A stretch of 64,000 nucleotides of DNA from an uncultured Gemmatimonadota bacterium (lineage in GTDB: Bacteria > JAAXHH01): the NCBI GenBank assembly GCA_951812955.1, contig OX638340.1, positions 3,264,001 through 3,328,000 on the forward strand. Direction: 5' to 3'. The translations under genes and the position numbers were made by a program. Positions 4,238 through 33,949 of the stretch are shown here, in pieces (position 1 is the stretch's first letter; each line of letters opens with the position of its first letter). The notes beneath the pieces were generated by a model. The model ran no database searches. It saw only the letters and a list, made by a program, of their open reading frames with translations, and was not told the DNA's origin.

Positions 4238-4278
4238 GCGCGCCTCCCCTGGTCTCCGACGATAATTTCAGCAGGCGA

Positions 4279-5406: not shown

Positions 5407-5508
5407 GGCGGATTCCTTTGTGCGCCGCGCAGCGGCGTGAACACGTGGTCCGTGCCGGCGCCAGGACGCCCGGTTCGGGCAGGCCGACGTACGGATCGTG
5501 CCGGTGGT

Positions 5509-6471: not shown

Positions 6472-6493
6472 GTTACGTCTCCTCAATTCGGTG

Positions 6494-7807
6494 TCAGCCG
6501 CAGAGTGCTTCCATTACTTCGTAGAGCATCCTTGGGCCCCGTTCCATGTTCTCCACGGAGATGCGTTCGTCGTTGCCGTGGATACGTCGAAGTTCTTCGT
6601 CAACCAGCAGAAAAGGCATGAAGCCGTAGCAGTGTATACCCAGTTCGCGGAAGTAGTGGCTGTCCGTGAAACCCGAGAGAATGTTCGGTACGACCTCCGC
6701 GCGCTCATGGTGCCGGGATACGACGTCGCGCACCGCGTCGACCAGGTGCGAATCGAAGGGTGAGGACGTGTTCCCGAAGTTCAGTATGGTCTCCATTTCG
6801 ATCCCGTCGTCGCCGACCACGTTTTTCAAGTCCCGGACGAAGTCTCCGGGATCTTCACCCGGTAGCAGCCTGCAGTCCAGTTCGGCCGTCGCCGCCTGGG
6901 GTATGATATTGATTTTGTCGCTGCCCTGCAACATGGTTATCGAGATGGTATTGCGGAGAATCGCCGCGTAATGCTGGTTACGGAGCAGGTCCGACAGGAA
7001 CAGGCCGTCCCGGACGGACTCCCTTATATTCGAGAAGCGTTTGCGGTAACCGTCTTTCTGCAGGTGCGCGATGCCTTCGAAGTACCGCTCGGCCGCGTCC
7101 GTCACCTTGATCGGCGGCGTGTAGGCCATGATGGCATTCAGGGCGCGTATGAGCCGGTTAACGGCGGAATGGGGTTTCGGGCGGGAACCGTGGCCGGGTT
7201 CGCCGCGTGCGACCAGGCGGATCCAGAAAGGCGATTTCTCGGTGATGTCGATGGAATAGACGGCCCTGCCGTTTTCCAGTCGGCCCTTGCCGCTTTCGTT
7301 GATCAGAAACTCCGCGTCCGAGACGAGTTCCGGCCGGTTCCGGGTGATCCAGCGGGCGCCGGCCGCTCCGCCGGCCTCCTCGTCGGCGGTGACGAGAAAG
7401 ACGACGTCCCGTTTCAGGGGAAAATGGTTCCTGTGCAGCGCTAGAAACACCACCAGTTCGGCGATGCCCAGGTTCTTCATGTCCAGCGCGCCCCGTCCCC
7501 AGATGTATCCGTCCCGGACCAACCCGGCGAAGGGATCGACCGACCAATACGCGCGGTCGGCGGGAACCACGTCGCTGTGACTCAGCAACACGACGGCCCG
7601 TTTCGAATCGTCCCCTCTCAGCCTCGCGTAGAGGTTGGACCGGCCCGGAGCGGATTGGTGGACCTGGCAGTCGATGCCTTCTTCGGTAAGGACACGGTCC
7701 AGGAAGGCGGTCGCGCGGTCCTCGTTGCCTGGAGGATTCGTCGTGTCGATCCGCAGGTACTCGCTCAGCAGTTGTACGGCTTCCCGCCCCATCGCGTTCC
7801 AGTCCAA
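6494..7807 (-). CDS. M20 family metallopeptidase (CPG2/ArgE/DapE-like dipeptidase)
   Basis: ...LLSHSDVVP...GRGALDMKN...LVTADEEAGG... zinc-ligand motifs of the M20 family. Confidence 0.8.
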   Translation of the reverse strand: MDWNAMGREAVQLLSEYLRIDTTNPPGNEDRATAFLDRVLTEEGIDCQVHQSAPGRSNLYARLRGDDSKRAVVLLSHSDVVPADRAYWSVDPFAGLVRDGYIWGRGALDMKNLGIAELVVFLALHRNHFPLKRDVVFLVTADEEAGGAAGARWITRNRPELVSDAEFLINESGKGRLENGRAVYSIDITEKSPFWIRLVARGEPGHGSRPKPHSAVNRLIRALNAIMAYTPPIKVTDAAERYFEGIAHLQKDGYRKRFSNIRESVRDGLFLSDLLRNQHYAAILRNTISITMLQGSDKINIIPQAATAELDCRLLPGEDPGDFVRDLKNVVGDDGIEMETILNFGNTSSPFDSHLVDAVRDVVSRHHERAEVVPNILSGFTDSHYFRELGIHCYGFMPFLLVDEELRRIHGNDERISVENMERGPRMLYEVMEALCG

Positions 7808-7811
7808 AGTC

Positions 7812-8810
7812 CTAGCTGCTCCCTTCGGTTTGCACCGCCTGTTTGATCACGGCAATGGCGGCGAGATCGCCCACTTCGTCTCCCAGCCCGGCGGCTTCTA
7901 CGCGCACCGTGTCGTAAACCCGCTCCCAGGTTTCTCGCCGCAGGTAATCGCGAATGGGTTCCAGGAGCAGATCCCCGGCTTTGACCAGGATGGTGCCGAT
8001 TACGATGATTTCCGGGTTCAACACATTCACGATGTTGCCCAGTCCGGTGGCCATGTACCTTGCCGTCTCGTCCACGATTTGCCGCGCACAAGGGTCGTTC
8101 TTCCTGGCCGCGTCCATGACGGTTTCCGCCGTAATGCGGTCCGGGTCGCCGCCTGCGAATGCGATCAGGAGCGAGTCCGGCGCCGCTTGCGCCTTCTCCC
8201 GGGCCCGCCTGGCGATCGATGGTCCCGAACACAGGGACTCGAGGCAACCGCGCTTTCCGCAACCGCAGGCCGGTCCGTTCTCGACGATGGTCATGTGCCC
8301 CACTTCGCCGGCCGTGTCGTTCGGACCGCGGTAGAGCCTGCCGTCGAGTATGATGCCGCCGCCGATGCCGGTGCTCATGGTCATGTATACCATGTGGCGG
8401 AAGCCCCGGCCGGCCCCGAAGGACCACTCCGCGAGGGCGCACGCGTTGGCGTCGTTCTCGACGAATGCCGGCAGCGACAGCGCATCTTCGAGCCACGCTT
8501 TAAGCGGTACCTCGTCCCAGCCCGGTAGATTGGGCGGCGCGTAGACCACGCCGGTTTCCGTGTCCAGGGGGCCGCCGCAACTAACGCCGACACCGGCCAG
8601 GTCCGACGAGGAGAGGCAGGCGCGCGCCATGGCTTCGCGGGACATGTCCACCAGCGTCGCCACCACGGCTTCCGGTCCCCGATCGGCTTCCGTCGGCCGC
8701 CGGACTTTGTGCAGGATGTTCCCGTTCCGGTCGGCGATTACCACGGCCAGCTTGGTTCCGCCGACGTCGTGGCCCAGAAGGTAAGGGGCGTTCCGGTCTG
8801 GCTGGGACAT
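7812..8810 (-). CDS. ROK family sugar kinase (glucokinase/N-acetylglucosamine kinase-like)
   Basis: LGHDVGGTKLAVVIAD N-terminal ATP motif, ...NDANACALAE..., ROK zinc motif GHMTIVENGPACGCGKRGCLE. Confidence 0.8.
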   Translation of the reverse strand: MSQPDRNAPYLLGHDVGGTKLAVVIADRNGNILHKVRRPTEADRGPEAVVATLVDMSREAMARACLSSSDLAGVGVSCGGPLDTETGVVYAPPNLPGWDEVPLKAWLEDALSLPAFVENDANACALAEWSFGAGRGFRHMVYMTMSTGIGGGIILDGRLYRGPNDTAGEVGHMTIVENGPACGCGKRGCLESLCSGPSIARRAREKAQAAPDSLLIAFAGGDPDRITAETVMDAARKNDPCARQIVDETARYMATGLGNIVNVLNPEIIVIGTILVKAGDLLLEPIRDYLRRETWERVYDTVRVEAAGLGDEVGDLAAIAVIKQAVQTEGSS

Positions 8811-8909
8811 GGTCGCGGGTCAGGGAATGGATCCGGCAGTTAAAAAACCGCCTTCCGGTTTTGCAGGAAAGCATGCAGTAATTATAGCGCGCGGGCGTCT
8901 TATGTCAAC

Positions 8910-8955
8910 TGCTTTCAATCGGTTGTCACGCGTGCTTTCAATCGGTTGTCACGCG
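8910..8955 (+). repeat. perfect 2 x 23-bp tandem direct repeat TGCTTTCAATCGGTTGTCACGCG in divergent intergenic region
   Basis: Read directly; lies between the ROK kinase gene (minus) and membrane-protein gene (plus); followed by TTGACA -35-like hexamer at ~8977. Confidence 0.85.
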
Positions 8956-9108
8956 GTTCGGCGCAGTCAAAAACAGATTGACAGCAACGGTCCGAACCGG
9001 GCATTTTGCAGGAGTCTGCAGGCCGCTGACCAACACGTGCGGCCTCGACCTCGACGCACGGATCCGCGGCCGTTCGACGGTCCGCTCAGGAATGGGAGGA
9101 AGACGGTT

Positions 9109-9609
9109 ATGCTGTTTGATACCAAGATACTGTGGATGTGGCTGCACGTACTGGGCGTCGTACTCTGGGCGGGCGGTTTCTTCTACGTCCTCGTCGCGCT
9201 CACCCCGGCGCTCCGGTCGGGCAGGGCATCGGAGGAGCGCGTGGAGATCATGCGCAGGACCGGCGCCATATTCCGGCGCGTTTCCTGGACGGCGATCATC
9301 ATCCTGGTCGTGAGCGGTTCGTTCAGCCTGTACAACCGGATCATGGATGGGTTAGCCGCCCGGGCGATGTCGTCCCAGCCGGAGCTTTATCCGCTGCTTC
9401 CCCCGGGCTACGAAGCGCTGATGACCGTCAAGCTCCTGATCGTCATCGCGCTGATCGTGCACCACGCGGTCAGGCTGCTGGAACCCCGGGTCCTCGATGA
9501 CGGCAGTATCGGTTTCAAGTCCAGGGCGTCGGGTATCGTGGGCGCCGTGCTTTTCGCTGCGGCGGTGCTGTTAGGCCTGATCCTGCTGACCATGAACGTC
9601 TCTGTCTGA
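9109..9609 (+). CDS. hypothetical integral membrane protein (4 predicted TM helices)
   Basis: MLFDTKILWMWLHVLGVVLWAGGFFYVLVAL... strongly hydrophobic segments; start at internal ATG of track ORF 8809-9609; upstream part of that ORF looks non-coding. Confidence 0.5.
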   Translation: MLFDTKILWMWLHVLGVVLWAGGFFYVLVALTPALRSGRASEERVEIMRRTGAIFRRVSWTAIIILVVSGSFSLYNRIMDGLAARAMSSQPELYPLLPPGYEALMTVKLLIVIALIVHHAVRLLEPRVLDDGSIGFKSRASGIVGAVLFAAAVLLGLILLTMNVSV

Positions 9610-9737
9610 ATCTGCGAACGAGAGCCCCGGGCATGCCGCGGGACGGAGAACGGGCCGGACGCCGCTTCCATCTTAAGGGCTTCGGCGCTGCAGTTCACCG
9701 TTGAAGCGGCCATCCATCAGGCCAGGGAGGCCTGTCC

Positions 9738-19495: not shown

Positions 19496-19540
19496 CCTGT
19501 GATTAAGCGCCAGAAAGTGAACGCGTCCGGACGGCTTCCC

Positions 19541-20716
19541 ATGTCGAACCACGTGATCGAAGCGGCGGCACAGCTCAGGTGGTGGCTGCGGCTTCCCCCG
19601 ACCAACCTCATCGACCGGGGCGACCACGTCCGTTTCCGGTACGCCCTCTACCTGATGATCCACCAGGTCGCCACCGTGCTCTACGGCATAAACGGGCTGC
19701 CCGAAAGTATGTACTATCCCTCGCGGCTCGAGGGTGCACGAAACCGCCTGGACGGGTTGACCCGGGCGCCGGAACACGCGGGCTCAATCCTCTGGACACT
19801 GGCGACCGAACGCGATCCGGAGAAAGCGTGGGCGGCCGCGGCAGGACTGATGCGGGATACCCTGGCATTGCTGGAAGAATCAGCGGATGGGCGTGGTTCA
19901 ATGGGTTGGGAAGTCGAGGAAGGATCATTCAAGCCGGATCAGTCTCGGAATCCCGATGATCTATACGCACTGGCCGCCGAAATCGCTGAGCGGCTTCGCC
20001 TCCTCGAGAAAGCAAGCGCCGTGGCTCTGGGCGGATCCCTGGGGAGGGGTTACGCAGACCGCCAGTCGGATATCGATCTGCTCTTTTTCGGGCCGAGCAT
20101 TCCCCGTGAGGTCGATCGCCGCCGGCTGATCTCGGCCTGGCCGGACATTCAACATGGACCCCTGGTCGAACCGGCCTGCGACAGCGTGGTGCTCGATGGG
20201 GCGATGGTCCATATACGCTACTGGACCAGGCAGACCGTGGAAGACATGCTGGCGGCAATTCCCAGGCCACCGGTACAGCGGATCCTTGCAGAAGAGTTAC
20301 AGAAATGCCACGTCTTGATCGATCCGGACGGAAGGCTTCTCGCGTGGAAAGGCGTTTTGCATCACATTCCATCGGAATTGGTCACGGTTATTTACGAAGA
20401 AGCGCGGGGAAGGCTGCCCGCTTTTCGTAAGCAGTGGCAGAAGGCGCAGGAGTCCGATGACCGGATCCATCTCTACTGCCTGGCCAACCAGGCCGTGAAC
20501 GATTTCCTGATTGCGCTGTATATCCGGAATGGGCGGTTTCTGAGCACGCCCAGATGGATTCACCTTGATACGCACGCGTTCGATGTCGGTCTGCCGGAAC
20601 TGGAATGCAGATTGGCTTCGTTTGTGGACGGGATAGACGACCGGAAAGATACTGCGGCGAGATGGCGCGCGCTTGAGGTTTTGTGGGGGAAGTTGGCGAG
20701 TTTGCCGCCTTCATAG
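19541..20716 (+). CDS. nucleotidyltransferase-domain protein (Pol-beta superfamily), unusual in having ~180 aa N-terminal to the NTase motif
   Basis: GGSLGRGYADRQSDIDLLFFG = GS-x9-DxD nucleotidyltransferase motif; ATG at 19541 preferred over track GTG at 19499. Confidence 0.55.
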   Translation: MSNHVIEAAAQLRWWLRLPPTNLIDRGDHVRFRYALYLMIHQVATVLYGINGLPESMYYPSRLEGARNRLDGLTRAPEHAGSILWTLATERDPEKAWAAAAGLMRDTLALLEESADGRGSMGWEVEEGSFKPDQSRNPDDLYALAAEIAERLRLLEKASAVALGGSLGRGYADRQSDIDLLFFGPSIPREVDRRRLISAWPDIQHGPLVEPACDSVVLDGAMVHIRYWTRQTVEDMLAAIPRPPVQRILAEELQKCHVLIDPDGRLLAWKGVLHHIPSELVTVIYEEARGRLPAFRKQWQKAQESDDRIHLYCLANQAVNDFLIALYIRNGRFLSTPRWIHLDTHAFDVGLPELECRLASFVDGIDDRKDTAARWRALEVLWGKLASLPPS

Positions 20717-21429
20717 GCCTTATGGTCGTCCGTGGTTGAGATTCGAAATGCTCTGCGCACATCTCGGAAATTACATCGTCTACGCGAAGGCTGAGATACG
20801 GCTATCTAAGGCGAGTCTGCTTCTGGAACAAAATAGACTTCGAGATTCAGGTTGAGAAATCGACTAATACCAGTAAGCAAGTTCCATGTAGGTATCCGTT
20901 TGACGTGTTCGGCTCTTGCGTTTGATCCACGCGTATTGTGCATTGCTACAATCATCGATCATCGGATTGCCTCTTATCGGGGCTGGATCGAATCCACGAC
21001 ATCGATCGAAGGAGTGGATTTCATGGGATGGCTCTATGAAGCCAAAAAGAGACGGCACAGGGTAGAAGGACGTGCTGAGGGCCGGAGAGAGTGACCAGGC
21101 CTACAGGGAGTGGATCAACAGGGAACAAGAGGCTGGTATGCTTGGCACACCGAAGCAAAGTCCTCCGCCGTTTCTTGATGATAGAATCTGCGATCAGGCC
21201 AACGGCTCGGATCATTGACACGGCTGGTTTTTCGATAGTCTCGGAAATCCGGGTATTGGCCTTTGGGGGACAGGATGGTTTGGCCAGTCGGATCCCCAGG
21301 ATTATTAGTAACGAATTCGGCAATGAGTCGTTTCTACGTCTGGCTCTGAACTTGCCCTATCCGGCTCAGATGTGACTACCACGTATACTGTCCTCCCCTC
21401 ATGCGAAATCGCTCGACATCGACCCGAAC

Positions 21430-21650
21430 CTCTTCCAGAGCCTTCGCGATTCCAACCTAAAGGATGGGGCGCTATAAGTATGATTTCCGTTCTATTTTGT
21501 CCAGATAGGTTTCGGTCAGCATCGACCCGTTGGTGACGATCGAGGTGGTCATCCCATATCCTTTCACCATTTCAATCAGATCCGCCAACTAGGGACAGAG
21601 CGTTTGTTCGCCACCTGCGAAACTCATTTCTTCGGTCCTTGCGTTCTGCA
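21430..21650 (-). pseudogene. remnant of a radical-SAM enzyme gene (fragment with internal stop)
   Basis: Minus-strand translation ...[44 protein letters not shown]... resembles the GGEPLL...TNG region of radical SAM/SPASM proteins but carries a TAG and lacks the CxxxCxxC N-terminus. Confidence 0.3.
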
Positions 21651-21941
21651 ACGTTGCCATTAGTGGCGGCATTGTTGGCTATAGAATGGACATCTACGTA
21701 GTACGGGGTTACGGCAGTCGAGGGCACGGCTCCGTTCTTCGGTCGGAAGCAAACGAGGAACCATCTAGTCGCTATTAAGGCTGAGGTGGCATTTTCAATG
21801 GCGAGCCGACACGCGGACTGGATGAAACAGGGTCGGCGAGATTATGAATACTACATCCGTGCGGAAGCGAAATGCGCACTGGCGAACGCCGCGCAGGTCA
21901 TCGACTTCTGTGAAGGTATTCTGGCTGGACCGCTCTCGACT

Positions 21942-22257
21942 GATGGAGCGTCTCAATCGAGCGGTCCGAACGCTGGGTGACCGCCACCCCGAAATCGAAT
22001 CGATCTATCTGTCCGGCTCGTTGGCGCGGGGAGACGCTGTACCCGGCAGCGACAGCGACGCGGACCTGCTGATCTTGGTGAGTCATGCCACCGAGCCGTT
22101 TCGGGATCGACCGGTCTGTTACCACACGACGGGTATGGGCGTGGACGTCGACGTGGTGGTTTACACGCGAGAGGAACTGGACGCGCTGCTGGAGACGGAC
22201 AACGAATTCGCACGGCGGGCATTGCGTGAGGGTGTCCGGTTGTTTCCGGTTCGCTGA
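21942..22257 (+). CDS. MNT-type minimal nucleotidyltransferase (antitoxin-like), apparently orphan
   Basis: ...IESIYLSGSLARGDAVPGSDSDADLLILV... = GSxxRG-x6-10-DxD of KNTase/MNT family; no intact HEPN partner found adjacent; start at MERLNRA ATG. Confidence 0.55.
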
Positions 22258-22425
22258 AGCGACCGGATACCGTGGTCTTTCTGGCCATGGTGGCAGTAAA
22301 CGGTTCGATCTTTCGGAGTTTGGGCGTTACGCGCTTTCAATCGAGATGGCCTTCGATTACGTTATAGTCGACAAGCTGTCAGGCGTCCCCAAAGGGATAA
22401 TCGCCCTGGATCTTGGAGGCGTTCG

Positions 22426-22860
22426 ATGATTAAGAATGAAAGGCAGTATTTGATTACGAAGGCTCAGGCTGCACGGTTCGTCCGCACTCTTGAAAGCCTG
22501 GATGGCGATGACGGTGTACATGATGTCATTCATAAAGCGCAACGGGATGCCGTACGAAGCCAGATCTCGGATATGAAAGCAGAGATTTCTGAGTACGAAT
22601 CGTTGAAGGCAGGGAACTCAAACCAGATCAACTTAAAACAGTCAACGAATTACCGGTGCTGCTAATCAAAGCGAGGATCGCTCAAGGCTTAAGCCAGAAA
22701 GATCTGACCGATCGGCACGGCTTAAAGGAACAACAAATACAGCGATATGAAGCCACGGACTATGTCTCCGCCGACTACCGCGACTCAGGGAGGTCGTCGG
22801 GGCCTTGGGAATCGAAGGAAAAACAATGAATTAGAATGAAACAGTCTCCGCATCTTAGTG
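22426..22860 (+). pseudogene. XRE-family HTH antitoxin (HigA-like) pseudogene with two frameshifts
   Basis: Frame 1: MIKNERQYLITKAQAARFVRTLESL...; frame 3 continues ...NELPVLLIKARIAQGLSQKDLTDRHGLKEQQIQRYEATDYVSA...(classic XRE helix-turn-helix); a third frame gives ...PRLREVVGALGIEGK. Shifts near 22640 and 22775. Confidence 0.55.
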
Positions 22861-22982
22861 GCCACATCAATCAATTTAACATGTTTCAACCGGTATACAT
22901 TCACACAAATATGCAAGCCATGTATCCAATGAAACAGTAGAGCCGTGGCTACCACAGCGAGCAGCAACTAGATTTGTTTAGG

Positions 22983-25900
22983 TTAGGCCATTAGATGCTC
23001 CAAAAGATTGTGGCTAACAGACCTGACTGTTCCCGTAGAAAGATCTAAAGCAACCTCCGCCATACCCACACCTTCGGATTGGGCGTTTATCTCTGAGCGC
23101 ATCCAAGCTCTTAGCCGTTCCGGCTGTTCATAGGTATCCAAAAGAAAGGAAGGGTAATTCAATTTTTCGAAGCTTGTGGGTTGGGTTTCTAGTCGGTTGA
23201 AAGCAAGCTCACGTACTTTCTTGTCACGTGTGAAACGGGCAGCTACGGCGCGCAAGCACGAAGGCAAAAACTCCCAGATATCACCACGGAGGTTCGACAT
23301 TCTCGTCTCAACTCCGATTACGAATTCATTCGGAGATGCGATTGCGGCTAACAATTGTATCTGAGCCGGAAGCAGGAGTTTAGGTTTTTCAGCTTGAACA
23401 CGGGTTCTCAGTTCTTTCCATGCTTGCGAGTCTGGCCAGCCTGCACTAAGGGCGATAACAAGCGCATTCGAATTGTCATCTAGAGTTACACAAGACTTTA
23501 GAACTTCGTAAGTTTTGGTATCGTTGGAAAATTGTTCAGCGAGAATTTCTGCAGCTACTATGCCAGGAGCAGTTTCGATCCAACTGCCTACATGGTGATA
23601 TTGAACTAAGGGGAGGCAAAGCTCGCGTAGTTGTTTCGTATTTCGCAATTGACTAGAATAAAGTTGTAGCATTGGTGCAGTCGTCATACTCTGACTAGCT
23701 TGTTCAACAATCTCGTCTGCTTTATCAGAATCTGTGGCGTGGGCAGCCATTTCCGTTAGGAATTCATCCGACATCCATCCTATTTGTTCCCAAATACTAT
23801 CACCGAACGCCTGAGTTATCCTATTCCAATGGCTGACCAAGTGTTCGGCTAATCGTAGGTTAGTGCTATGGACTACGCCAAAGCCTCGGTCATTTGTCTC
23901 ACATTCTGACCACACAGTTTTTACGATGTCAAGTCGGTCAAGCTCAAGAAGTACGGAGAAGGCCGCTTGGCGCCGGTCCCCGTAATCCGGTCCTATAACA
24001 AGCAACCCCTTTGTCAGTTTTTCAAGAAGTTCAGATGAGAGTTCATCTCGTTGAATGACTGATGCTGCGAAGCCGATTGCAGCTGCCGTTTTAACATTTA
24101 CATCTATATCTTCATCATAATCTGACAGAAGTTTATATGCGAAATCATCGTCTGGACCTAAGCGTGCAAGTCGATCGACGACAGTCAAACGGAGTTGTAC
24201 GGGGAGTGGACTACTTAGTTTGAGCAGTTCACAACGTATCTCATCACAATTTAGGTAGGCATTTGCAACGGTATTCAAGTCCCCTGCACGATTCCGTAAC
24301 TGATGAAAAGACAAGTCACGTACCTTGGGATGATTAGGAAAGTGTTTAATCAAGTCACTTACGCCCCAGTATGGTACGCCTGATGGTACCTCCCCCGAGT
24401 ATTTCTCTATAGCTGCTGGCACTACTTCCTCGTCATGCTCCTTTACTCCAAGATTGACCAATCCTATCAAAGCACCTCGGGCTGTTGAACCCGATTCATT
24501 GTTAAGAATCTCTAGTAAACGCCGCCGACATAGTACTTTATCGAGAAGAATCTCTGGCAGAAGATGTGCGGCCTTTATCGCAACATCACTATCAGCAAGA
24601 TTTAACAAAGCAGTAGCAACTTCTTTATCCTCCATACCCCATCCTAGTAACAACCACCGAGCTTGGTCCTTTGATATAACACCAGTATCCTCGTCCGGTT
24701 TAAGCAAAATACCCTTTGCCTGTTCTGATCGAGAGATGAGGCAAAGTTCGAAATCCCAAAATAACCTTCCGTTTTCTTTTTTAATTTTCCGCTCTAGCCA
24801 GTCGTCAACGGCTAGTCCTAATATCTGATGACCAGCGAATGCCTCAACGAGCGGTCCCCAGTTACCGCCAAGGCCAATTAAATGGCTAGGATAGTCTTCA
24901 GTCCGAAACAAACCTGCAATGGCCTCAGCAACCTCATCATCTTGCGGAAAACCTTCCAGCAGAATGATTCCGACGGCTCCAGAATCAACTATTACTTTAT
25001 CACCATTTCGTTCGATACTCCGTATCGCACTGTTTTTGACTCCAATGTCACCTGGCCAACCCTTGAGAAGAGCCCGAATTCGGTCGTCTTTCCAGCACCA
25101 TGATGCAAAGTGAAAATCTCGTGCAAGTTCTACTAATGTCTCGTAGTCATCCACATCCTGTTCTTTGCGTTTCACTCGATGAATTAGTGCGACACTTTGT
25201 AATGCAACATCGGCAGATGACCGCGCGTGCTTCAAGATTTCAGGAAGCCGATGATTAGTTTCCCAACCAAGGCAAAGCGCATGCAAGGAGCAGGCAAGCA
25301 GTCGCGGTTCAGAAGGAATCAATAGTAAGTCAAACAGCCATTCTGCAACAGAAGGATCACCTCCGTAAGCTCTTGCGAGTGATTCTGCTGCTATTCGTTG
25401 ATTCCAAGCTTCTTCATCAATAAAGCCACGCATTAATATCGCTTGGCCCTCGCTAGAAATACCCCATTTCGAGGCGGACTCATACATTCCGTGACGATAT
25501 TGATGTCGCAAGGGAAACCAGCGTTGAATACGGGACTCTACATGTGATCGCAGTATCTCGGATTCAAGTCCATCAAGTGCAAACTCAATAAGTCGTTCTC
25601 GAGTACCCGTGCGAACTCCGGTTTCTACAATCTCAAACGTCTCTTCCGCCAGTTTTCTGGCGACACTTGGCGAACAATGGAGATCACCAAAGGCTACTTC
25701 GGCAAGAAAGCTTTGCCGAGATAACTCCATTTCAGCCGCTAGTGGCATACTTTCGATAATCGCGACGAATTCATCCACCTCACCATACCGCGAGTTAAGA
25801 TGGCACAGGCACAAAAACACATCGTGCCACTGAGGATTCTTAAATCGTTTCTTCAATGCTTCCTTTTGCTGTTCAAATGGGAGATTAGATAGGTGTTTTG

Positions 25901-27872
25901 CAGCGAGGAATTCTTGTAAAGAGCGATGTAGAAAGCCGATCTCTATTGGTGATTTCTCGATGAGAACCCCAACTGCCTCGGTACCAATAGTGAGTAATTC
26001 TTCTGCTATACTATGTGCACCTTCCGGTTTTTTATGTAGGTGAGTTGAACAAAATCCCTGAAGCACATCCTTAGCAATGACTCTATCTAGAGCATCGCTC
26101 CCCGCTGAATCGTGGGTTTCCCAAGCCAACCTAGCCAATGCCCGTTCACGTGTTTCCTGTTGCAAATGTGAGTTGGTCCCGCGTGCGTGAACTGACTTTT
26201 CACGTCGCTTGGGCTGTTCGTCTAGCAGCAGACGTGCTAGTTCCTCGTATGCTTTGAATCTGCTGCGGGGAAGGCTCACTTTCTGAATGGCAAGAGCAAT
26301 TAGGCCATTAAGTAGTAAAGGCACCTTTGCCAGGCGGGATATCCGTAAATCACGGTGAAGGTCTTGTATGAATTGGGTGGCTTCGGATTTCGCCCTTTTG
26401 TGTCGCATGGCGATAGAGTCGCTATCTTCGCCAGGTACAGCAAGTGTGTAGGACCGATGCATGAACCATCGTTCAGCCAAGATTCCTTGTTGTTCATCTG
26501 TCAACCCAGAAAGCTGGGCTACACGCCACCTACTGCTTAGTCCACCGATCCGCGTATAACCTAGAGGACGACTGCTGACGATTGCTGGTACATTCCGTTC
26601 TCCCACGAATTGTTCGAGCAAACCAAGCGCCGTCCGAGCATCCGTGCCGTTACTCCACTCATCAAGGCCATCTACAAATAGCATTAATCTCGAATCTTCC
26701 AAAGCCTGCTGAACCAATGTAATTAGAGCTGTCTCAGCGGAAACTTTTTGAAGCCAAGCAGTGAGAACATTTGCTAACGAACACCCTGTTTCAGATTCGC
26801 TGACAAGTCGCGTCCACATGGCAAACGGAACCCAAACAGGTAAATATTGTCCCCAACGAAGAGCACTTGCCTCATAGCGCGGATCGGTACTAAGTAGATC
26901 AAGTAATACACAACGAAGCAAGGTACTCTTGCCGATACCTGGGTCTCCAAGTACAACCGACTGATCGGAGTCTGCAAGCCAGTCAATCGCTGAGCGGCGA
27001 ACTAGCGAGGGTCGAGGCAAAACTTGCGGTCTGCGGGATTGAGTAGAGTCTTCGTTTCCATCGGTGCGGAGTCGTCCTTTATTTTGATCTTCTATCGATT
27101 GATTAGTTGTTTCAATGTGGGCAGCTTGTTGTTCTTCCAGAATATCGGGAGGCACAAATCGATCGGCTAAACTGAGGGGCTGAAAGTCAGGTTTTATGGA
27201 ACCTGTTACGGACGGGATACCGGGATCGGAAATCTCGAAATGGTGAGTATAGCAACGCCGAAGAAGCTGTCGCAGTTGTACGACCTGACCAGGTTTTAAT
27301 CGGCGACTCGACAGTTTGGCAGCAGCTTCTTCGCCACAGAATTCCTGCACCCACTCGCGTCCAAAGAAGTCGTCTACTAAATCTGGATGGTTTTTTAGAT
27401 GTTCAGAAATCTGCGTGACACCAAGTGGTAGGAATTGGATGTTGCGTTCACGGAGGCGATCGCCTTGTGATTCTAATTCTATTGCAAGCTTTTTTTCTTC
27501 GGTCTTCACCGAAACTGCTAGTACAAACTTATCGGTTTTAGGTGCCCATGAGCCTTTTAAAAAACCAGTAACCGCAATGTCGATGAGATCCGAGCTGAAT
27601 TCCTTGTATCTTTTGCACTGCCAAACAGTATATCTGGATGATTCCAATGTGCGTACGTAGATATCTATACCTTCTTGATCCTGACCTGGAATCCCATACT
27701 CTTGACATCTTTCCACTTTTCCACCGCGCTGTGCGAGGCGAGCACAAAGTCTTTGAAAGAAGTTCCACGGTAAGAGGTTTAGTGGGAGTTCCTGTAATCT
27801 AGTTCTAATGGGATGAGAGACAAATGATTCAGATGGTACCCACACACTTGTGTTTTTTTTTGATTCTTCCAT
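22983..27872 (-). CDS. NLR-like antiviral STAND protein: N-terminal Mrr-type restriction-endonuclease-like domain + NACHT NTPase + ~1000-aa C-terminal helical (HEAT/ARM-like) repeat region
   Basis: N-term ...GQDQEGIDIYVRT...YTVWQCKRYK... (Mrr_cat-like D...QxK); Walker A VVLGDPGIGKSTLL; NACHT-type Walker B LMLFVDGLDEW followed by AIVSSRP; remainder alpha-helical repeats. Real ATG is second codon of track ORF (track starts at TTG). ~45% GC. Confidence 0.85.
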   Translation of the reverse strand: MEESKKNTSVWVPSESFVSHPIRTRLQELPLNLLPWNFFQRLCARLAQRGGKVERCQEYGIPGQDQEGIDIYVRTLESSRYTVWQCKRYKEFSSDLIDIAVTGFLKGSWAPKTDKFVLAVSVKTEEKKLAIELESQGDRLRERNIQFLPLGVTQISEHLKNHPDLVDDFFGREWVQEFCGEEAAAKLSSRRLKPGQVVQLRQLLRRCYTHHFEISDPGIPSVTGSIKPDFQPLSLADRFVPPDILEEQQAAHIETTNQSIEDQNKGRLRTDGNEDSTQSRRPQVLPRPSLVRRSAIDWLADSDQSVVLGDPGIGKSTLLRCVLLDLLSTDPRYEASALRWGQYLPVWVPFAMWTRLVSESETGCSLANVLTAWLQKVSAETALITLVQQALEDSRLMLFVDGLDEWSNGTDARTALGLLEQFVGERNVPAIVSSRPLGYTRIGGLSSRWRVAQLSGLTDEQQGILAERWFMHRSYTLAVPGEDSDSIAMRHKRAKSEATQFIQDLHRDLRISRLAKVPLLLNGLIALAIQKVSLPRSRFKAYEELARLLLDEQPKRREKSVHARGTNSHLQQETRERALARLAWETHDSAGSDALDRVIAKDVLQGFCSTHLHKKPEGAHSIAEELLTIGTEAVGVLIEKSPIEIGFLHRSLQEFLAAKHLSNLPFEQQKEALKKRFKNPQWHDVFLCLCHLNSRYGEVDEFVAIIESMPLAAEMELSRQSFLAEVAFGDLHCSPSVARKLAEETFEIVETGVRTGTRERLIEFALDGLESEILRSHVESRIQRWFPLRHQYRHGMYESASKWGISSEGQAILMRGFIDEEAWNQRIAAESLARAYGGDPSVAEWLFDLLLIPSEPRLLACSLHALCLGWETNHRLPEILKHARSSADVALQSVALIHRVKRKEQDVDDYETLVELARDFHFASWCWKDDRIRALLKGWPGDIGVKNSAIRSIERNGDKVIVDSGAVGIILLEGFPQDDEVAEAIAGLFRTEDYPSHLIGLGGNWGPLVEAFAGHQILGLAVDDWLERKIKKENGRLFWDFELCLISRSEQAKGILLKPDEDTGVISKDQARWLLLGWGMEDKEVATALLNLADSDVAIKAAHLLPEILLDKVLCRRRLLEILNNESGSTARGALIGLVNLGVKEHDEEVVPAAIEKYSGEVPSGVPYWGVSDLIKHFPNHPKVRDLSFHQLRNRAGDLNTVANAYLNCDEIRCELLKLSSPLPVQLRLTVVDRLARLGPDDDFAYKLLSDYDEDIDVNVKTAAAIGFAASVIQRDELSSELLEKLTKGLLVIGPDYGDRRQAAFSVLLELDRLDIVKTVWSECETNDRGFGVVHSTNLRLAEHLVSHWNRITQAFGDSIWEQIGWMSDEFLTEMAAHATDSDKADEIVEQASQSMTTAPMLQLYSSQLRNTKQLRELCLPLVQYHHVGSWIETAPGIVAAEILAEQFSNDTKTYEVLKSCVTLDDNSNALVIALSAGWPDSQAWKELRTRVQAEKPKLLLPAQIQLLAAIASPNEFVIGVETRMSNLRGDIWEFLPSCLRAVAARFTRDKKVRELAFNRLETQPTSFEKLNYPSFLLDTYEQPERLRAWMRSEINAQSEGVGMAEVALDLSTGTVRSVSHNLLEHLMA

Positions 27873-28376
27873 CAATGTAAATCCTTAAACCGATCGTCGA
27901 TGATGTTACCTCGATTTCGTGGACGATTTACCATTTGGGATTCAGGCTGTTTGCTTGAAGCTCCTTTCGTAGGTTGATGGTGAGAGATATCCGGGGGAAG
28001 AGTGCTTTCTCCAAGTATTGTAGAAGTCCTCGATGTATTCGAACAGTGCGAGTCTAGCCTCGGTCCCTGATTCGCTAGACCGACCGTATGTTGCAAGTGG
28101 AGAAACCTGAGAAAGTTATAGGTAGGGTTGCAAATACTATAATAAACATAGGCAATCACTACGTGGATTCGCCATCTGCACACAACCAAGGCACGCGTTC
28201 GAACGGGTTTTGGTTTCCAGTGATTAAACGATTCTTATATCGTCCTCGATATTCGAATTTCCGCAACAATATCAATTCGATATACCACTGACTTAGGCGT
28301 AAAGAATCCAATAGTGCATCCATCGAAATGTGACCATGCCTACGTTCAGGGTGAACGATATCATTACGAATCTTTG

Positions 28377-29444
28377 TTATCGCGGTCGGACCGTCCGTCC
28401 ATCCCTTCTTTTAGCAATCGCTTCCAAGTGTTTGCAGTGTGACGGAATTTTTGCTTCGATTTCTAATTCTTCGAGTGTCTTTTTTAACGATTTACCGAAA
28501 GAATACACCGTTTCCTGATTGATAATGTAGGACAGAGATTCTAGGGCAGCCTGAGTAAGAACGATTCCCACGTGAATGGCGCTGCCAGCACTATTCACAT
28601 ACCAATCTATAGCCCGACGAATGGCATCTTTCCATTCTTCCTTGGTATACAATTCCCAGAACCCACGAAAAGATCCGGAAAGACTGCCTCCCCCGTCATG
28701 TTTCGCGAGCCACGTGTGCCTGCTTTCTTGCCAGTGAGTTACGTACTTCGTTCCCCATAGTATGGACTGCTCCCCTCCACTTACATCAATTCCTTTTACA
28801 GATGTAAGACCACACGCCGTGCCACGAGCGAATGAGAAAAAGGTCCCTAATCCGTCTATTAAGGGTAATACGTCACCCACGGTAAACACTTTGTTGTTCA
28901 GAGAGTAAATTGCTCCAGTGTGGGTTATGGCATATCCTCCACTTTGTTTTAGGATCTTCTGATTCTCAAAAAAATTGCGATTTTCTTTAATCTCAATCCG
29001 CCAATGATCGACTTCTAGGATTGCGAACCCAAGTCGTCGATATACTCCATCTATTTCTATGTGTTTATCTTGTGCACCATAAAACGTTATGAAATTGAGT
29101 ATACCGAATCGCACAGATTTAAGTCGGACATCGGACCGAGCTACTGTACAAGGACTCTGAACAGGGCCTAAGGAACCTTTGAATCCAATTACTGAATCCT
29201 TATTGAGACTACATGACTTCAGCTTTACTCGAATCCTTCCGCCGCTCTTCAAGGAAATAAAAAAAGGTTCATACATAAATCTCTGTCGCATAAACAATGG
29301 ATATTCATCGGAATCGATAGAAAACTGTAATCTGGGCGACAGTCGAAGAACCGCGCGAACCTTACAAGGCGTGGATAGACATTGGTCTTGTATGTGAGTG
29401 ATACTTGTATCGTCAAGAACAACTGGTTCATTCGGTTTGCACAT
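28377..29444 (-). CDS. hypothetical protein, 355 aa, no recognisable motif; low-GC island gene between the RM gene and the NLR gene
   Basis: Long clean ORF, ~43% GC, codon usage like neighbours, 44 bp downstream of the RM gene stop on the same strand. Confidence 0.5.
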   Translation of the reverse strand: MCKPNEPVVLDDTSITHIQDQCLSTPCKVRAVLRLSPRLQFSIDSDEYPLFMRQRFMYEPFFISLKSGGRIRVKLKSCSLNKDSVIGFKGSLGPVQSPCTVARSDVRLKSVRFGILNFITFYGAQDKHIEIDGVYRRLGFAILEVDHWRIEIKENRNFFENQKILKQSGGYAITHTGAIYSLNNKVFTVGDVLPLIDGLGTFFSFARGTACGLTSVKGIDVSGGEQSILWGTKYVTHWQESRHTWLAKHDGGGSLSGSFRGFWELYTKEEWKDAIRRAIDWYVNSAGSAIHVGIVLTQAALESLSYIINQETVYSFGKSLKKTLEELEIEAKIPSHCKHLEAIAKRRDGRTVRPR

Positions 29445-29487
29445 AACCTACCGATTATCCTTCAATCACCGTGAAAAGATTCTTAAA

Positions 29488-32400
29488 CTACTCCATCGCC
29501 ATAATGATTCTCGCAATCCGCCTAGCGGTTTCCGTAAAGTACTTAATCTCTTGGGGATTGAGCGCACGCCCGATCACATTGAACTCGCGGTAGGATAGCC
29601 ATTTCTTAAGTACCTGATAGCCGCCAAGCTTGTAGTTCCAGATTTTGGTGGGTACGTTATGCCAGAAGGCGCGGTCGTTCAAATACACGTCCACAGTAGT
29701 TGCACCTAGTGCGGAAATCGCCGTACCTAGGACGGCGCGTTCGTCAGCCGTGTATTTGCGTTCGACGATGCGGCCTTTGCCCGGCATTACCGTGTCGCCC
29801 CGTCCGTAGTGACCCCACCTCGCAGTCACTGCGAAATCATCATCGGTCATATTGCTACCGTGGCTAGTTGTAGGCACGGCAAGCGAAGCGATCTCAGGTG
29901 GTATCGCACCCTGAGTAACGCCCGGTACCGGGGTGTCGGGATCAAATAGACAGGCTAGTTCACGACCCCGGTCGGCCGATTCAGCGAATAACTCAGCGGC
30001 ATTTTTGGTATCCCCATTGGGCCAGCCCGGTAGTGGTATACGCGGCCAGTCCATTGCAAGCGCCCCGGCATTAGCTTCACGATATGTCGGATTGTGGAGG
30101 ATGGTAAGGATGTTGTGGAATAAGTCCTCAGGACTCGCTCGTATACGATGGAGATAGCGTTTGCCAGCCTCAGATAAGTTTGGTAGGTAATGTAATACGT
30201 TGTCACCAGCCCCAAGGACGTCGTTGTTAAGATAGATGGGGAACCATATCGCAGTACGTTCGATTAAATGCATAGCACCAAAGTGTCGGGTAACAATGGT
30301 CTGTGCCTCCGTTACGTCCTTACGAAGATGCTGAGCTGCACACAGCCACAGGTTTTCCTCGAACACCTGTCGCTTGTAGTCGGCACGCTTGTCGTTAAGG
30401 AGTTTAGTCTCTGCTTCCCAGTAAAGCCATCGGATATCGAAGGGGCGGTACGCGAAGCGAATGAACCCGCCTTCGTTCGGTCCGCCGCGTGCGAGTAGTG
30501 TTTCGCGCACAGAGTGAGCGTCAAAATGCCTCGCGGTTTTCATGATAATAGGATATCGCTGGGCAATCTCGTTGTGGCTCAAATTCACGTCGAAATAATC
30601 GGAGACGCGGGCCATTAGTCGATCAAGGTCGATATCGACAAGAAACGAGTCCCGGTTGGTCTTTGCTCCAGGAAATGAGATCGGATAAATATCGGGTAAC
30701 GTAGGCCAGTTGAACCAGCCCTCACTCACCGCCGTACGCACGAACGGCAGGCCAAGCGGCAAAGATGGCTCGATGCGGTCATAAAGTACGTTTGGTTCCG
30801 CATGCGCCGTCGCCATCAGTTCCTTGCGCTTTGTACGTCCCCACAGATGGCGAAATCCGATCTCCACTGCGGGGGTATGATTGTACTTACGTACCAGAGT
30901 TGCAATGGCCGTACCCACCTGAATGCCAACCGGATTGTCCGGCGTCGAAAAGATACTTGGGTCTGGCGAGCCATCGGGAGCGACCTTTCCGGTCTTATAT
31001 TTGTCGCCATTTAAGCAGTCGATCCGAATCGAGTCGAAAACCTTGAGGAAGCGCTCCCTCATACCAGCGAACGACAGCCCGTCGAGCCAGGAATAATTGG
31101 AAATGAAACAGATTACCCCCTGACCGGTTCGCCCAGCAATCCGTCTTTCAGCCATACGGAAGAATCGGATGTATAGATCGATCAGTCCCTTGCTTTTTTC
31201 CATCCGTACTTTGCTTGTCTTACGATAGGCTTCGAAGAGTTCGCGTTCTTCATCAATCGTTACACCGGCAAAGGCATTATAGGGTGGATTACCCAAGATC
31301 ACCAAAACCGGAGTCTCCTGCTTCACTCTCTCGGCCCGGTCACGCTCTTCCTCCAATTCAGGGAACGGCAGCACATTCTTAGTTCGCGGCTCCCATCCAG
31401 TCAGAGCGTTTGTTAGGAAGACTTGGGCTCGTTCCATCCCGTCATCGGAAAACGTCGCATCAAGTGCCTGCATGGTCAACCCGATCTGAAGATGCGATAC
31501 GACAAAAGGCGCGGGCATGATCTCGAAGCCAAACACCCGTTCTAATGCCGCCTGCTTTACCTGCGAACCGACAAGCGCACCGACTCCTTTGTTTTCAAGA
31601 TTGGAAGCAATATTGCGTAACACTTCTGCCAGATAGGTTCCGGTACCGCAGCATGGGTCGAGCACATATACGTTTTCCGCAGCTAGTCCATCTGGAATCC
31701 CCAGATCGTCTTTGAGCGCTTTGTCCACTCGTGTAACCATATAGCGCACTACTTCGATTGGTGTGTACCATACGCCTAGTTGCTTACGCAACCCAGGGTC
31801 GAATGCCTGTAGAAAGGGCTCGTAGAAATAGGTTACCGCTTCGCCTTCATTGAATCGGGTGAAGAAGGTAGTGCGGTCCACACGGTTAAGAGCAGCGGAT
31901 GTCCAATCCAACACTTCCACTAGGCCTAGAGGCTCAAGGCGAGCAGGCTGTGAGAGTTGCTGGAACAGAGATTGCATGATAGGAGCACGTAAATGCCACA
32001 CAGCTTCACGCCAGTTGAACCGCCCTTGTGGCGGTGGCACCTGTCGTGTCCACAAAACCTAGGCGGAAAAAACCCCATAGAATAGTGTCTGCACTAGCGT
32101 TGAATTGAAAAACTGTGTGCCTTTTTCCCCCTCGAATCGGACACCAAGCGCGGCTTCTATCGCAGCCCGCACCGATTCTAGAGACGGCGAATCGTCGACG
32201 GCTTCGACACGAGAGAGCCCATCCCGAGCATAAGATGCTAACAACCACGCTAGGTCCTTAGGCTCGGTAAGCATAGTGCGATGTGACAAAGCTCGGGAAA
32301 GATACTCACCCAAGCCCACGCTGACCTCTCGGGCAAAGGTTCGCGGAGTCGCTAACTTTAGATCAAATTCCTCAGCAGTCTCGGCTACCTTAAAGCACTC

Positions 32401-32829
32401 CAATACCGTCTGCTTCCCGACATCGTCTTCTCCCACCAAAACGAATTCACAAGTGTCGGTCACCAGCACCTGACGATAGCGTGCCCAATACCGGGCGACC
32501 TGTTCGCCGACCGCTGTCGCTGCAGCATCACCAGAGAGTGACTTCACCTCCACAACGCCACGTTCCGGCGCTTGCTCTTCGCGAGGTCTGCCTCTCCTAA
32601 CCTGGTTTTCAGTAAAAAGCCCGAAGTCAGGATGGCCCGCACCTAGATCAGCAAGCTCTCCAACGCAATGCACCTTAGGATTGAGCATTCCACCGATGGC
32701 GTTCAGCAGATTTGCGATTGGTCCATAGCTAGAACGTTCTCCGGTCGCAGCCCCGGAAGCCTTTATTCTCTGCAAATCGGCGAAGTAGAGCTCAACTGCT
32801 GCAGTTAGTTTATTGTTCAATACTGTCAT
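29488..32829 (-). pseudogene. MmeI-like single-polypeptide Type IIG/IIL restriction-modification enzyme (PD-ExK nuclease + gamma-class N6-adenine MTase + TRD), interrupted by one in-frame TAG at 32059-32061
   Basis: N-part (32829-32062): ...LGAGHPDFGLF...GVVEVKSLS... PD-x(n)-ExK. C-part (from 32055): ...VLDPCCGTGTYL (SAM motif I), ...ILGNPPYNA (motif IV), C-terminal TRD. Both parts are in the same frame: TTT TCC GCC TAG GTT TTG TGG. Downstream part could still be translated from TTG/GTG as MTase+TRD. Confidence 0.75.
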
Positions 32830-33224
32830 GATTACAATTATAAGGTTGATGAATGCAGGCGCTATAGTGTGTTAGAGGAGTTATGCGAAAAGCGAGGAGT
32901 GGTGTCTAATGTAACAGCGACCTTTAAATGCGGATGTTTGATGCTCGTAAGAGTCAGGGAATTCGGGTTCTTTTTCTTCAATTTTCAATGTCATCAATGC
33001 GAAACTTCACCCTGACGTATTTGCTGTCTTCGTTTTGTTCAAGCTCTGGTTCAGCGCCGTTGAGCTCGCTAATCGCTTTGCGCATCAACGGCCACACTCT
33101 TCCTCTTTTCCATATATCCTAACTGCCATCTAATTTGCCATCAGTTTATTTTAACGTGCATGTATTCAGATAAAGTACTGTATTAAGTTGAGGACATCCC
33201 AATTGATCTCCTGTTGTTCCGTCC

Positions 33225-33491
33225 TCAGCGATATATCTTATCCCGTCTGCCAACTCGAATTACCAAAACGCGCAACGCTCCGGTCTGTATGTCGCAGATC
33301 ACACGAAAGTCACCGACCCGATATCGCCACAATTTGCCCATCGGTCCGGCCAGTGCCCTTCCCGTGTTTCGTGGATCACTGGAGTCAGCAACGCGTTCTT
33401 CAATGTAATTGACGATGCGCAGTGTCGTCTGCTTGTCGAGCTTGCGAAGATCGTTAAGGGCGGTTTCAGTGTACTCAATCGTCCAGGGCAA
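33225..33491 (-). CDS. RelE/ParE family type II toxin
   Basis: MPWTIEYTETALNDLRKLDKQTTLRIVNYIEE...GKLWRYRVGDFRVICDI... typical RelE/ParE fold sequence; overlaps antitoxin gene by 17 nt. Confidence 0.75.
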   Translation of the reverse strand: MPWTIEYTETALNDLRKLDKQTTLRIVNYIEERVADSSDPRNTGRALAGPMGKLWRYRVGDFRVICDIQTGALRVLVIRVGRRDKIYR

Positions 33492-33702
33492 GGGACTTTC
33501 TCACTTCGGAAGCAGTGTAGACTTTTTCCGTCCCTCTTCTGAGGCGATTCAGTACGTCCGACGCAAAGTAGTAGTCTTCCAGGTCTTCGAGGCCACGCTC
33601 AATGATCTCACGTAAGTGGAAGTCCTTGCTGAGGCTCGTCTTGGATACCAATAACTCAAGCCGCTTTTCATCTTCGGGAGTCAGTTGTATCGAAGTCGCC
33701 AT
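33475..33702 (-). CDS. RHH-type antitoxin (RelB/ParD-like)
   Basis: MATSIQLTPEDEKRLELLVSKTSLSKDFHLREIIERGLEDLEDYYFASDVLNRL...; ribbon-helix-helix N-terminus, immediately upstream of toxin. Confidence 0.65.
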   Translation of the reverse strand: MATSIQLTPEDEKRLELLVSKTSLSKDFHLREIIERGLEDLEDYYFASDVLNRLRRGTEKVYTASEVRKSLALDD

Positions 33703-33949
33703 GTCGGGTAATCCTTTGTCGATTAAACTACAACTGCGAAGAATCATCTAAGTTTCAACGTACTTCATAGAGGTACTTACGTCAATATCCTAATCCTTTT
33801 CGCGCGGACTGAGCCTGTCTTCATCTCAGTATAGTCACAATACTGTGGCCTAAGAAACCCCCCGCCACCCTGCATCCGCAATACCAACCCTTCCCCGCTC
33901 TGCCGCAGGCTATATTATCAGAAGGCGGCTCAAAATCCGGACGTCTGAA

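Follow-up and report, generated by a model that had tools for sequence, protein, structure and literature searches.

The poly-G/C contingency loci of Campylobacter, Neisseria, Haemophilus and Helicobacter include phase-variable restriction-modification (R-M) genes. These tracts lie within genes, near the 5' end, where a slip of one unit leads to an early stop, and the genomes that carry them have tens of tracts, mostly of at least seven units, at conserved loci that are length-polymorphic between isolates (PMC6321876, PMC3315296). Within phage defence, pglX of the BREX-type Pgl system of Streptomyces coelicolor carries a poly-G tract in its coding region; an indel there abolishes the product, and measurements showed that the tract varies in length and switches at 1e-2 to 1e-4 (PMC4365076, citing Sumby and Smith 2003). 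Runs of nine A's on the sense strand of coding regions are also described in Thermus thermophilus dnaX, Shigella mxiE and IS elements. Functional A9/T9 slippage sites of this kind are conserved among homologues, and most open a second frame with an extended ORF; in T. thermophilus dnaX, about 50% of the product is short (PMC1088944). Among bacterial NACHT proteins, bNACHT25 and bNACHT32 (clade 6) carry a PD-(D/E)xK/Mrr-like DNase at the N-terminus, NACHT in the centre and a helical region at the C-terminus, and are single-gene systems found among defence genes (bioRxiv 10.1101/2022.07.19.500537; PMC12169576). Defence by bNACHT25 depends on its nuclease activity (Kibby et al., bioRxiv 10.1101/2022.07.19.500537; PMC12169576). 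Of 64 literature matches, the 12 ranked highest include none that links bacterial NLR/NACHT proteins to phase variation or describes a homopolymer switch in a bNACHT protein.

The locus that we compare with these systems lies in a 64-kb stretch of DNA (the window), for which a preliminary description had proposed a classic contingency locus at the 5' end of an NLR-like gene. The gene and its domains are as follows.

22983..27872, minus strand: intact STAND NTPase gene encoding 1629 aa, in which a putative Mrr-like nuclease region is followed by NACHT and by a long, probably helical-repeat C-terminal part
27540..27773, minus strand: putative PD-(D/E)xK/Mrr-like nuclease effector, residues 34-111, with D70 ... 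Q85-C86-K87
26457..26963, minus strand: NACHT module, residues 304-472, with Walker A GDPGIGKST and Walker B FVDGLDEW

That the gene is NLR-like is borne out by Pfam, in which PF05729 (NACHT) matches residues 304-472 with 40 bits against a gathering threshold of 26.7. The protein carries a Walker A motif of the form GxxxxGK[ST] as well as D[GAS]hDE, the form of Walker B that is specific to NACHT (Kibby et al., bioRxiv 10.1101/2022.07.19.500537). G309, G312, G314 and K315 of the former and D401, G402, D404 and E405 of the latter are invariant in the family. The putative nuclease is matched by Mrr_cat with 17.7 bits (E = 0.004, below the cut-off of 21) and by Mrr_cat_2 with 16.4 bits, also below its cut-off, while PF04471 is precomputed on many homologues; D70, Q85 and C86 do not vary in the family, and at least 90% of sequences keep K87. 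Residues 492-1629 have no Pfam match. HEAT_2 (PF13646) is precomputed on homologues, and a family profile compared with solved structures gave only weak matches to alphaRep HEAT-like repeats (best E = 0.0017), beyond which sequence and profile searches of the PDB found nothing. By their published description, bNACHT25 and bNACHT32 resemble the protein in the probable overall order of domains and as single-gene systems among defence genes, but its C-terminus would consist of about 1150 aa of putative HEAT-like repeats where clade 6 has an NCH1 domain; no PADLOC v2 model matched it. It belongs to a well conserved, uncharacterised Mrr-like/NACHT/HEAT-like family found widely in environmental bacteria and also in some archaea. 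Relaxed selection on the gene was considered and rejected: dN/dS against the closest relative (L001, 78% aa identity) is 0.22, and the protein deviates from the family consensus at 45 positions compared with 63 in L001, with no lineage-specific excess.

Features around the start of the gene were placed as follows.

27870..27872, minus strand: ATG start codon of the NACHT gene, supported by the aligned N-termini of homologues (n>50); one protein-collection entry starts exactly here
27882..27886, minus strand: AAGGA, a Shine-Dalgarno-like motif 9 nt before the ATG, read from the sequence
27945..28100, minus strand: 52-aa C-terminal remnant of an rve_2 (IS-type integrase core) domain, which makes up the region upstream of the NACHT gene; L001 has it too

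More than 50 homologues start with M(M)xxSKKxT.VWVPPES at the same place as the window protein, and purine motifs like AAGGA also precede the starts of relatives. A scan of 27700-28500 for promoters and terminators returned nothing, including no sigma-70-like promoter. Two other candidates in this region were set aside: the TTG one codon upstream of the ATG, given as the start in the ORF list, is a mechanical artefact, and a 105-aa ORF (27872-28189, minus strand) whose TGA overlaps the ATG is spurious, having no Pfam match and not being conserved in L001.

The coding strand begins ATG GAA GAA TCA AAA AAA AAC, for M-E-E-S-K-K-N. The nine-base run that had been noted there exists and falls in codons 4-7 as described, but it was placed at 27857-27865/66, 4 nt from where we find it. 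Together with the codons that a slip would bring into play, the positions read from the window sequence are:

27853..27861, minus strand: A9 homopolymer (T9 on the plus strand), from the third base of TCA (codon 4), over both AAA codons, to the second base of AAC (codon 7)
27829..27831, minus strand: TGA met after a slip to A10 (or A7), giving a product of 13-14 codons
27779..27781, minus strand: TAA met after a slip to A8 (or A11), giving a product of 30-31 codons
27843..27845, minus strand: in-frame GTG (codon 10) immediately ahead of the conserved WVP(P/S)ES, where homologue P0053 has its annotated start (MWVPSES)

The assembled A9 is the in-frame, ON state, with an ORF of 1629 aa. A change of one unit would switch the reading frame, as in a contingency locus, and the expectation that a slip in either direction truncates the product holds, with a stop after 30 codons for A8 and after 14 for A10. 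After such a slip, translation could in principle begin again at the GTG of codon 10; no obvious Shine-Dalgarno motif precedes it. The tract is the sole homopolymer of at least 8 in the 64-kb window and the only short-unit repeat there, the window being devoid of di-, tetra- and pentanucleotide arrays. We also asked whether A9 might reduce mRNA structure at the initiation site, and rejected this, as interrupted variants of the tract fold no differently (predicted structure of the initiation region, -9.7 kcal/mol in both cases).

No recurrent 5' homopolymer emerged as a family trait. Among 134 relatives (63 from genomes and ENA contigs, and 71 distinct sequences from metagenomes), none has a run of at least 8 around the start, and the maximum is 7. 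At the tract site itself, L001 reads TCA AGA GAA AGC, and in all six closer relatives with a Lys-Lys pair there (S-K-K or L-K-K) the pair is encoded AAG AAA. In one more distant relative (L067, 48% identity), this Lys-rich leader contains runs of A6 and A7, so A-runs come up in the leader repeatedly as a side effect of its lysine codons. Elsewhere in the gene, at scattered positions, 12 of the 134 family members have runs of at least 8 and 6 have runs of at least 9.

The composition of the gene points the same way. AAA accounts for 50 of its 72 lysine codons (69%). Given S-K-K-N and this codon usage, the probability of A9 is about 0.09 and that of A8 or longer is 0.48; when synonymous codons were permuted within the gene, 9.9% of permutations recreated a run of at least 9, always at the S-K-K-N site. 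At the level of the window, 11 of 100 dinucleotide-preserving shuffles contained at least one A9/T9 (mean 0.16). The presence of an A9 in the window is not strongly beyond chance. The tract lies within a 14-kb island of 44-53% GC, in a window of 58% GC on a chromosome of about 62% GC.

This island has the character of a defence island, since the NACHT gene adjoins a Type ISP/IIG R-M gene and nucleotidyltransferase genes. NACHT homologues similarly adjoin R-M systems of XamI/Eco57I-like, MmeI-like or Type ISP kinds. Two of the neighbours are disrupted.

28162..29444, minus strand: neighbouring YopA-like gene of the conserved module; compared with L001, it lacks 1 nt near 28409 and is frameshifted
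29488..32829, minus strand: Type ISP/IIG R-M gene interrupted by an in-frame TAG (32059-32061) that corresponds to TGG in L001

The deletion in the YopA-like gene occurred at a 4-base A run, not at a long homopolymer. The TAG that kills the Type ISP gene arose by a G-to-A change, the kind of mutation that is proposed below for the tract as well. A nearby ORF pair, with translations read by eye, resembles a RelE/ParE toxin-antitoxin pair.

Taken together, we consider it likely that the A9 is an incidental, lineage-specific homopolymer in an intact, putative NACHT defence gene, rather than an evolved on/off switch. The family leader M-x-x-S-K-K-x-T, which is short, poorly conserved and Lys-rich and precedes WVPPES, would here simply be encoded by TCA AAA AAA AAC. 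Starting from the TCA AAG AAA AGC type seen in relatives, two G-to-A transitions would suffice to convert A3-G-A4-G into A9, and this outcome is unremarkable because the NACHT gene prefers AAA for lysine. Once formed, the tract would presumably attract indels locally, and RNA polymerase may slip there to a small extent. We infer that truncation of the nuclease-NACHT protein by a slip is a liability of the sequence, not a selected switch, and that A9 itself is neutral or slightly deleterious rather than selected. Its persistence is mildly surprising, because many bacteria select against A/T runs of 9 in coding regions, this being the length at which such selection starts to show in many genomes (PMC1088944), and the gene is otherwise well conserved. 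Other observations also count against an incidental origin. The run sits exactly where a switch would work best and is the only one of its length in 64 kb; the nuclease-armed STAND/NLR-like class, exemplified by bNACHT25, is toxic when activated (bioRxiv 10.1101/2022.07.19.500537); and defence genes switched by simple sequence repeats (SSRs) do exist, the G tract of pglX being an example (PMC4365076).

The alternative that survives best, though we regard it as unlikely, is the contingency locus of the preliminary description, in which slipped-strand mispairing at A9 would reversibly toggle the nuclease-NACHT gene between ON (A9) and OFF (A8/A10), and the population would hedge between protection from phage and the system's cost or risk of autoimmunity. 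The location of the tract in codons 4-7, with early stops after both slips, speaks for this, as does a defence island that places the gene beside R-M, putative toxin-antitoxin and nucleotidyltransferase genes. As a precedent, pglX shows that phage defence can be switched by a homopolymer, at the rates quoted above (PMC4365076). Monomeric repeats are generally commoner near N-termini; in some species N-terminal SSR enrichment marks phase variation, and in many, constraints of protein structure alone suffice to explain enrichment near protein termini (PMC3315296). The comparison with the known switches nevertheless breaks down at several points. Unlike pglX, the NACHT gene has a poly-A run of nine and relatives that lack the tract; unlike the poly-G/C genomes, the window has a single A9, unique to this sequence among 134 relatives, and no other SSR at 58% GC. 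Nine A's fall short of the cut-off of at least 10 that PhasomeIt applies to poly-A/T, a class that makes up 7% of its candidate repeats compared with 91% for poly-G/C (PMC6321876). Codon usage accounts for the run, and the GTG at codon 10, judged by its place in the sequence, could allow leaky expression of an almost full-length protein. Finally, no length polymorphism is observable: the 90% identity cluster of the NACHT protein has one member, on one contig, and a variable-gap pattern built from the tract flanks had no exact match in JGI metagenomes. The claim of a classic contingency locus finds neither comparative nor statistical support, being at odds with the absence of the run from the relatives, with its explanation by codon usage, with the lack of other short-unit repeats in the window and with the PhasomeIt cut-off. 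A variant, which we think quite improbable, would have A9 as a working slipped-strand switch of the nuclease-armed NACHT receptor that is very recent, having arisen by the two G-to-A changes, in an island where the adjoining R-M and YopA-like genes had already lost function.

A different possibility is that the tract acts at the level of RNA, with polymerase slippage, or ribosome sliding on AAA AAA AA, putting a fixed fraction of transcripts out of frame. A nuclease effector that may be toxic would in this way be kept constitutively at a lower dose, with the DNA unchanged. A9/T9 runs are indeed slippage-prone in several bacteria (PMC1088944), and slipped transcripts would be harmless because both shifted frames end quickly. 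However, slippage efficiency varies by organism, and the tract differs from functional or programmed slippage sites in being unconserved. It occurs in no relative, which argues against a family-level regulatory device, and its shifted frames end after 13-31 codons, neither having an extended ORF that would point to a second product. We therefore hold this to be very unlikely.

Long-read assemblies make their indel errors mainly in homopolymers, the contigs with the closest relatives are metagenomic and long-read in style, and two neighbouring genes are disrupted. Even so, an artefact of assembly or consensus, in which the true tract is A8 or A10 (and the gene broken) or a heterogeneous site was collapsed by the assembler, is extremely unlikely, as the A9 frame matches homologues both before the tract (M-E-E-S) and after it (T-S-V-W-V-P-S-E-S) and stays open for 1629 codons, a sequencing error would need to restore the frame by luck, and the neighbours were disrupted by a substitution (TGG to TAG) and by a 1-nt deletion at a 4-base A run.

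If the tract were switched, the cost and autoimmunity risk of an NLR-like abortive-infection receptor would be managed by stochastic on/off variation, as in some R-M and BREX/Pgl systems, and a working switch would make this the first SSR-phase-variable bacterial NLR. The label of contingency locus should await length polymorphism or conservation of the run. On the incidental origin that we favour, the case is a cautionary one: lysine codons in an AT-richer island can be expected, fairly often, to give a defence gene a lone, borderline poly-A run near its start.

The A9 tract lies near the 5' end of a minus-strand gene (22983-27872, 1629 aa) encoding a protein with a putative Mrr-like nuclease N-terminus, a NACHT module and putative helical repeats, here called the NACHT gene. 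The minus strand around the start reads ...TTTAAGGATTTACATTG ATG GAA GAA TCA AAA AAA AAC ACA AGT GTG TGG GTA CCA..., and contains the following features.

27872-27870, minus strand: ATG start codon of the NACHT gene, from homologue N-termini and P0001, an identical protein
27853-27861, minus-strand gene, codons 4-7: A9 homopolymer (T9 on the plus strand), from the sequence
27845-27843, minus strand: in-frame GTG, codon 10, directly ahead of W11, P13 and E15, the first residues that are conserved

The preliminary description assigned the tract to the right codons (4-7, in the minus-strand reading), with coordinates (27857-27865/66) four bases too high. A public protein collection already holds the identical 1629-aa protein with the ATG start (P0001), more than 50 homologues share this start, with the pattern M(M)-x-x-S/L/P-K-K-x-T-x-x-W-V-P-P-E-S, and an AAGGA motif stands 9 nt upstream of the ATG. 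An ORF finder placed the start at a TTG one codon upstream (frame 22983-27875), which was rejected on the evidence of P0001 and the homologues.

A slip at the tract would truncate the NACHT protein. A10 or A7 leads to a TGA at 27831-27829, 13-14 codons in, and A8 or A11 to a TAA at 27781-27779, 30-31 codons in. The earlier suggestion that a slip of +/-1 turns the ORF off is mechanically correct. Leaky re-initiation at the codon-10 GTG is possible after a slip, and no obvious SD motif precedes this codon. Because the annotated start of at least one homologue (P0053) coincides with this GTG, the nine residues before it are probably dispensable.

The NACHT module (residues 304-472) scores 40 bits against a gathering cut-off of 26.7, with Walker A GDPGIGKST and Walker B FVDGLDEW, the latter matching the NACHT-specific D[GAS]hDE signature (bioRxiv 10.1101/2022.07.19.500537). 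From this score and these motifs, the gene is predicted to be a bona fide NLR-like defence gene, as first proposed. The N-terminal ~110 residues give sub-threshold Mrr_cat matches (17.7 bits) and contain a D70 ... Q85-C86-K87 motif, invariant except for K87, which is conserved in at least 90% of sequences; many homologues carry PF04471. A Pfam search of the C-terminal 1150 residues returned no match; HEAT_2 is present on homologues, and a profile of the family has weak matches to alphaRep HEAT-like repeats in the PDB. With a NACHT module between a putative Mrr-like N-terminus and a putative HEAT-like C-terminus, the protein resembles in architecture the nuclease-NACHT proteins bNACHT25 and bNACHT32 (PMC12169576). 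No PADLOC v2 model matched it, and there was no close match among solved structures. The family (907 matches, about 1630-1650 aa) occurs in Latescibacterota, Poribacteria, Nitrospirota, Acidobacteriota, Proteobacteria and some archaea. Relative to the closest relative locus, L001 (78% amino acid identity), dN/dS is 0.22, and lineage-specific deviations from the family consensus show no excess (45 in the window copy versus 63 in L001). By these measures, the gene looks functional.

The low-GC island in which the NACHT gene is located (44-53% GC, 14 kb, ~20000-33900, versus about 62% for the chromosome) is inserted between arginine-biosynthesis and oxidoreductase genes, and also carries a restriction-modification (R-M) gene. 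Neither an integrase nor a flanking tRNA was seen at the island. Its other features are as follows.

19499-20716 and 21844-22257: nucleotidyltransferase genes
27945-28100, minus strand: remnant of an IS-type integrase core (rve_2), C-terminal 52 aa, 29.2 bits
28162-29444, minus strand: YopA-like gene, with a 1-nt deletion near 28409 relative to L001
29488-32829, minus strand: Type ISP / IIG R-M gene, with an in-frame TAG at 32059-32061
33225-33747: ORF pair like a RelE/ParE toxin and antitoxin, judged by eye from translations

L001 shares this arrangement of genes (Type ISP R-M, YopA-like gene, IS integrase remnant, NACHT gene). The TAG replaces a TGG (Trp) of L001, 79% identical here, and because it divides the R-M gene into ORFs of 256 and 855 aa, this gene is probably a nonsense pseudogene. 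The YopA-like deletion (gctaaa-agaag versus gctaaacagaaag in L001) shifts the frame of a gene that encodes 428 aa in L001; its site is not a long homopolymer, and it would reflect either a pseudogene or an assembly error. By these two lesions, two of the three genes of the shared module appear disrupted here, subject to the assembly-error alternative for the YopA-like gene; the NACHT gene is intact. The rve_2 remnant, between the YopA-like and NACHT genes, has its L001 equivalent at about 4780-4935; because of this conservation, we regard it as an old IS scar, which today serves as the upstream region of the NACHT gene. NACHT homologues in L063, L064, L065 and L001 lie immediately downstream of differing R-M systems (an XamI-like REase with an Eco57I-like MTase, an MmeI-like system, or Type ISP), a recurrent association with changing partners. 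Elsewhere in the window, an odd tRNA-like gene (12897-12968, minus strand) scores 37.7 bits against an Rfam tRNA cut-off of 29; ARAGORN left its type undetermined, with a four-base anticodon, 'cacg'.

The tract is absent from L001, which reads ATG GTA GAA TCA AGA GAA AGC at the homologous site. The comparison took in 134 relatives, 63 of them from genomes or ENA contigs and 71 distinct ones from metagenomes. In the roughly 150-210 nt surrounding the start, none of them has a run of at least 8; the longest is 7. The six closer relatives that encode Lys-Lys at the tract position (S-K-K or L-K-K) all write it AAG AAA. The Lys-rich leader of another relative has both an A6 and an A7 (ATG CCT AAA AAA CGC AAA AAA ACT), which shows that lysine codons give rise to A-runs here as a side-effect. 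Elsewhere in the 4.9 kb genes, runs of at least 8 occur in 12/134 and of at least 9 in 6/134, at scattered positions. In some distant members, an A9 or G10 run lies midway along the matched gene region: Dickeya oryzae (L038) and a Pseudoalteromonadaceae MAG (L039), both at gene position ~700, Edaphovirga (L049, ~748) and a Nitrospinota MAG (L061, ~2747). A Latescibacterota homologue (L006) has an A9 at about gene position 4389; its match to the 1629-aa protein is spread over 7.3 kb (3001-10268), a spread that points to an insertion inside the gene, perhaps of a mobile element. Clustered at 90% identity, the NACHT protein forms a cluster of one member, on one contig (3.8 Mb), and nothing in JGI metagenomes matches the tract flanks exactly.

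The tract exceeds chance expectation only weakly. No other homopolymer of at least 8 occurs in the 64 kb window, and A9/T9 appears in 11 of 100 dinucleotide-preserving shuffles; four of the window's five runs of at least 7 lie in the low-GC island. AAA makes up 50 of the gene's 72 Lys codons. For the peptide S-K-K-N, the probabilities expected from the gene's codon usage alone are 0.09 for A9 and 0.48 for A8 or longer. When synonymous codons were permuted within the gene, a run of at least 9 reappeared in 9.9% of trials, every time at the tract site.

We therefore consider it likely that the A9 is an incidental, recently arisen homopolymer, which two G-to-A transitions could have produced from a TCA AAG AAA AGC-type ancestor. 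The contingency locus originally proposed, an evolved phase-variable switch, fares poorly against the lack of 5' runs of at least 8 in relatives and the codon-usage estimate, and we judge it unlikely. Neither arrays of di-, tetra- or pentanucleotides nor a second long homopolymer occur in the window, and a tract of 9 falls below the poly-A/T cut-off of a published phasome pipeline (10 or more; 7 or more for poly-G/C; PMC6321876). Interrupting the tract does not alter the structure predicted for the translation-initiation region. Monomeric repeats are commoner near N-termini generally; protein-structure constraints alone account for enrichment near protein termini in many species, and a clear N-terminal excess is found only in certain pathogens (PMC3315296). 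An RNA-level attenuator would draw on the ability of A/T runs of 9 to cause RNA-polymerase slippage (PMC1088944); we consider this reading improbable. An assembly artefact in the tract's length is less probable still. Returning to the incidental homopolymer, runs of nine A or T reach a length that is counter-selected in many genomes and, because they are both selected against and slippage-prone (PMC1088944), the tract is probably a mild liability and a genuine, though modest, indel hotspot.
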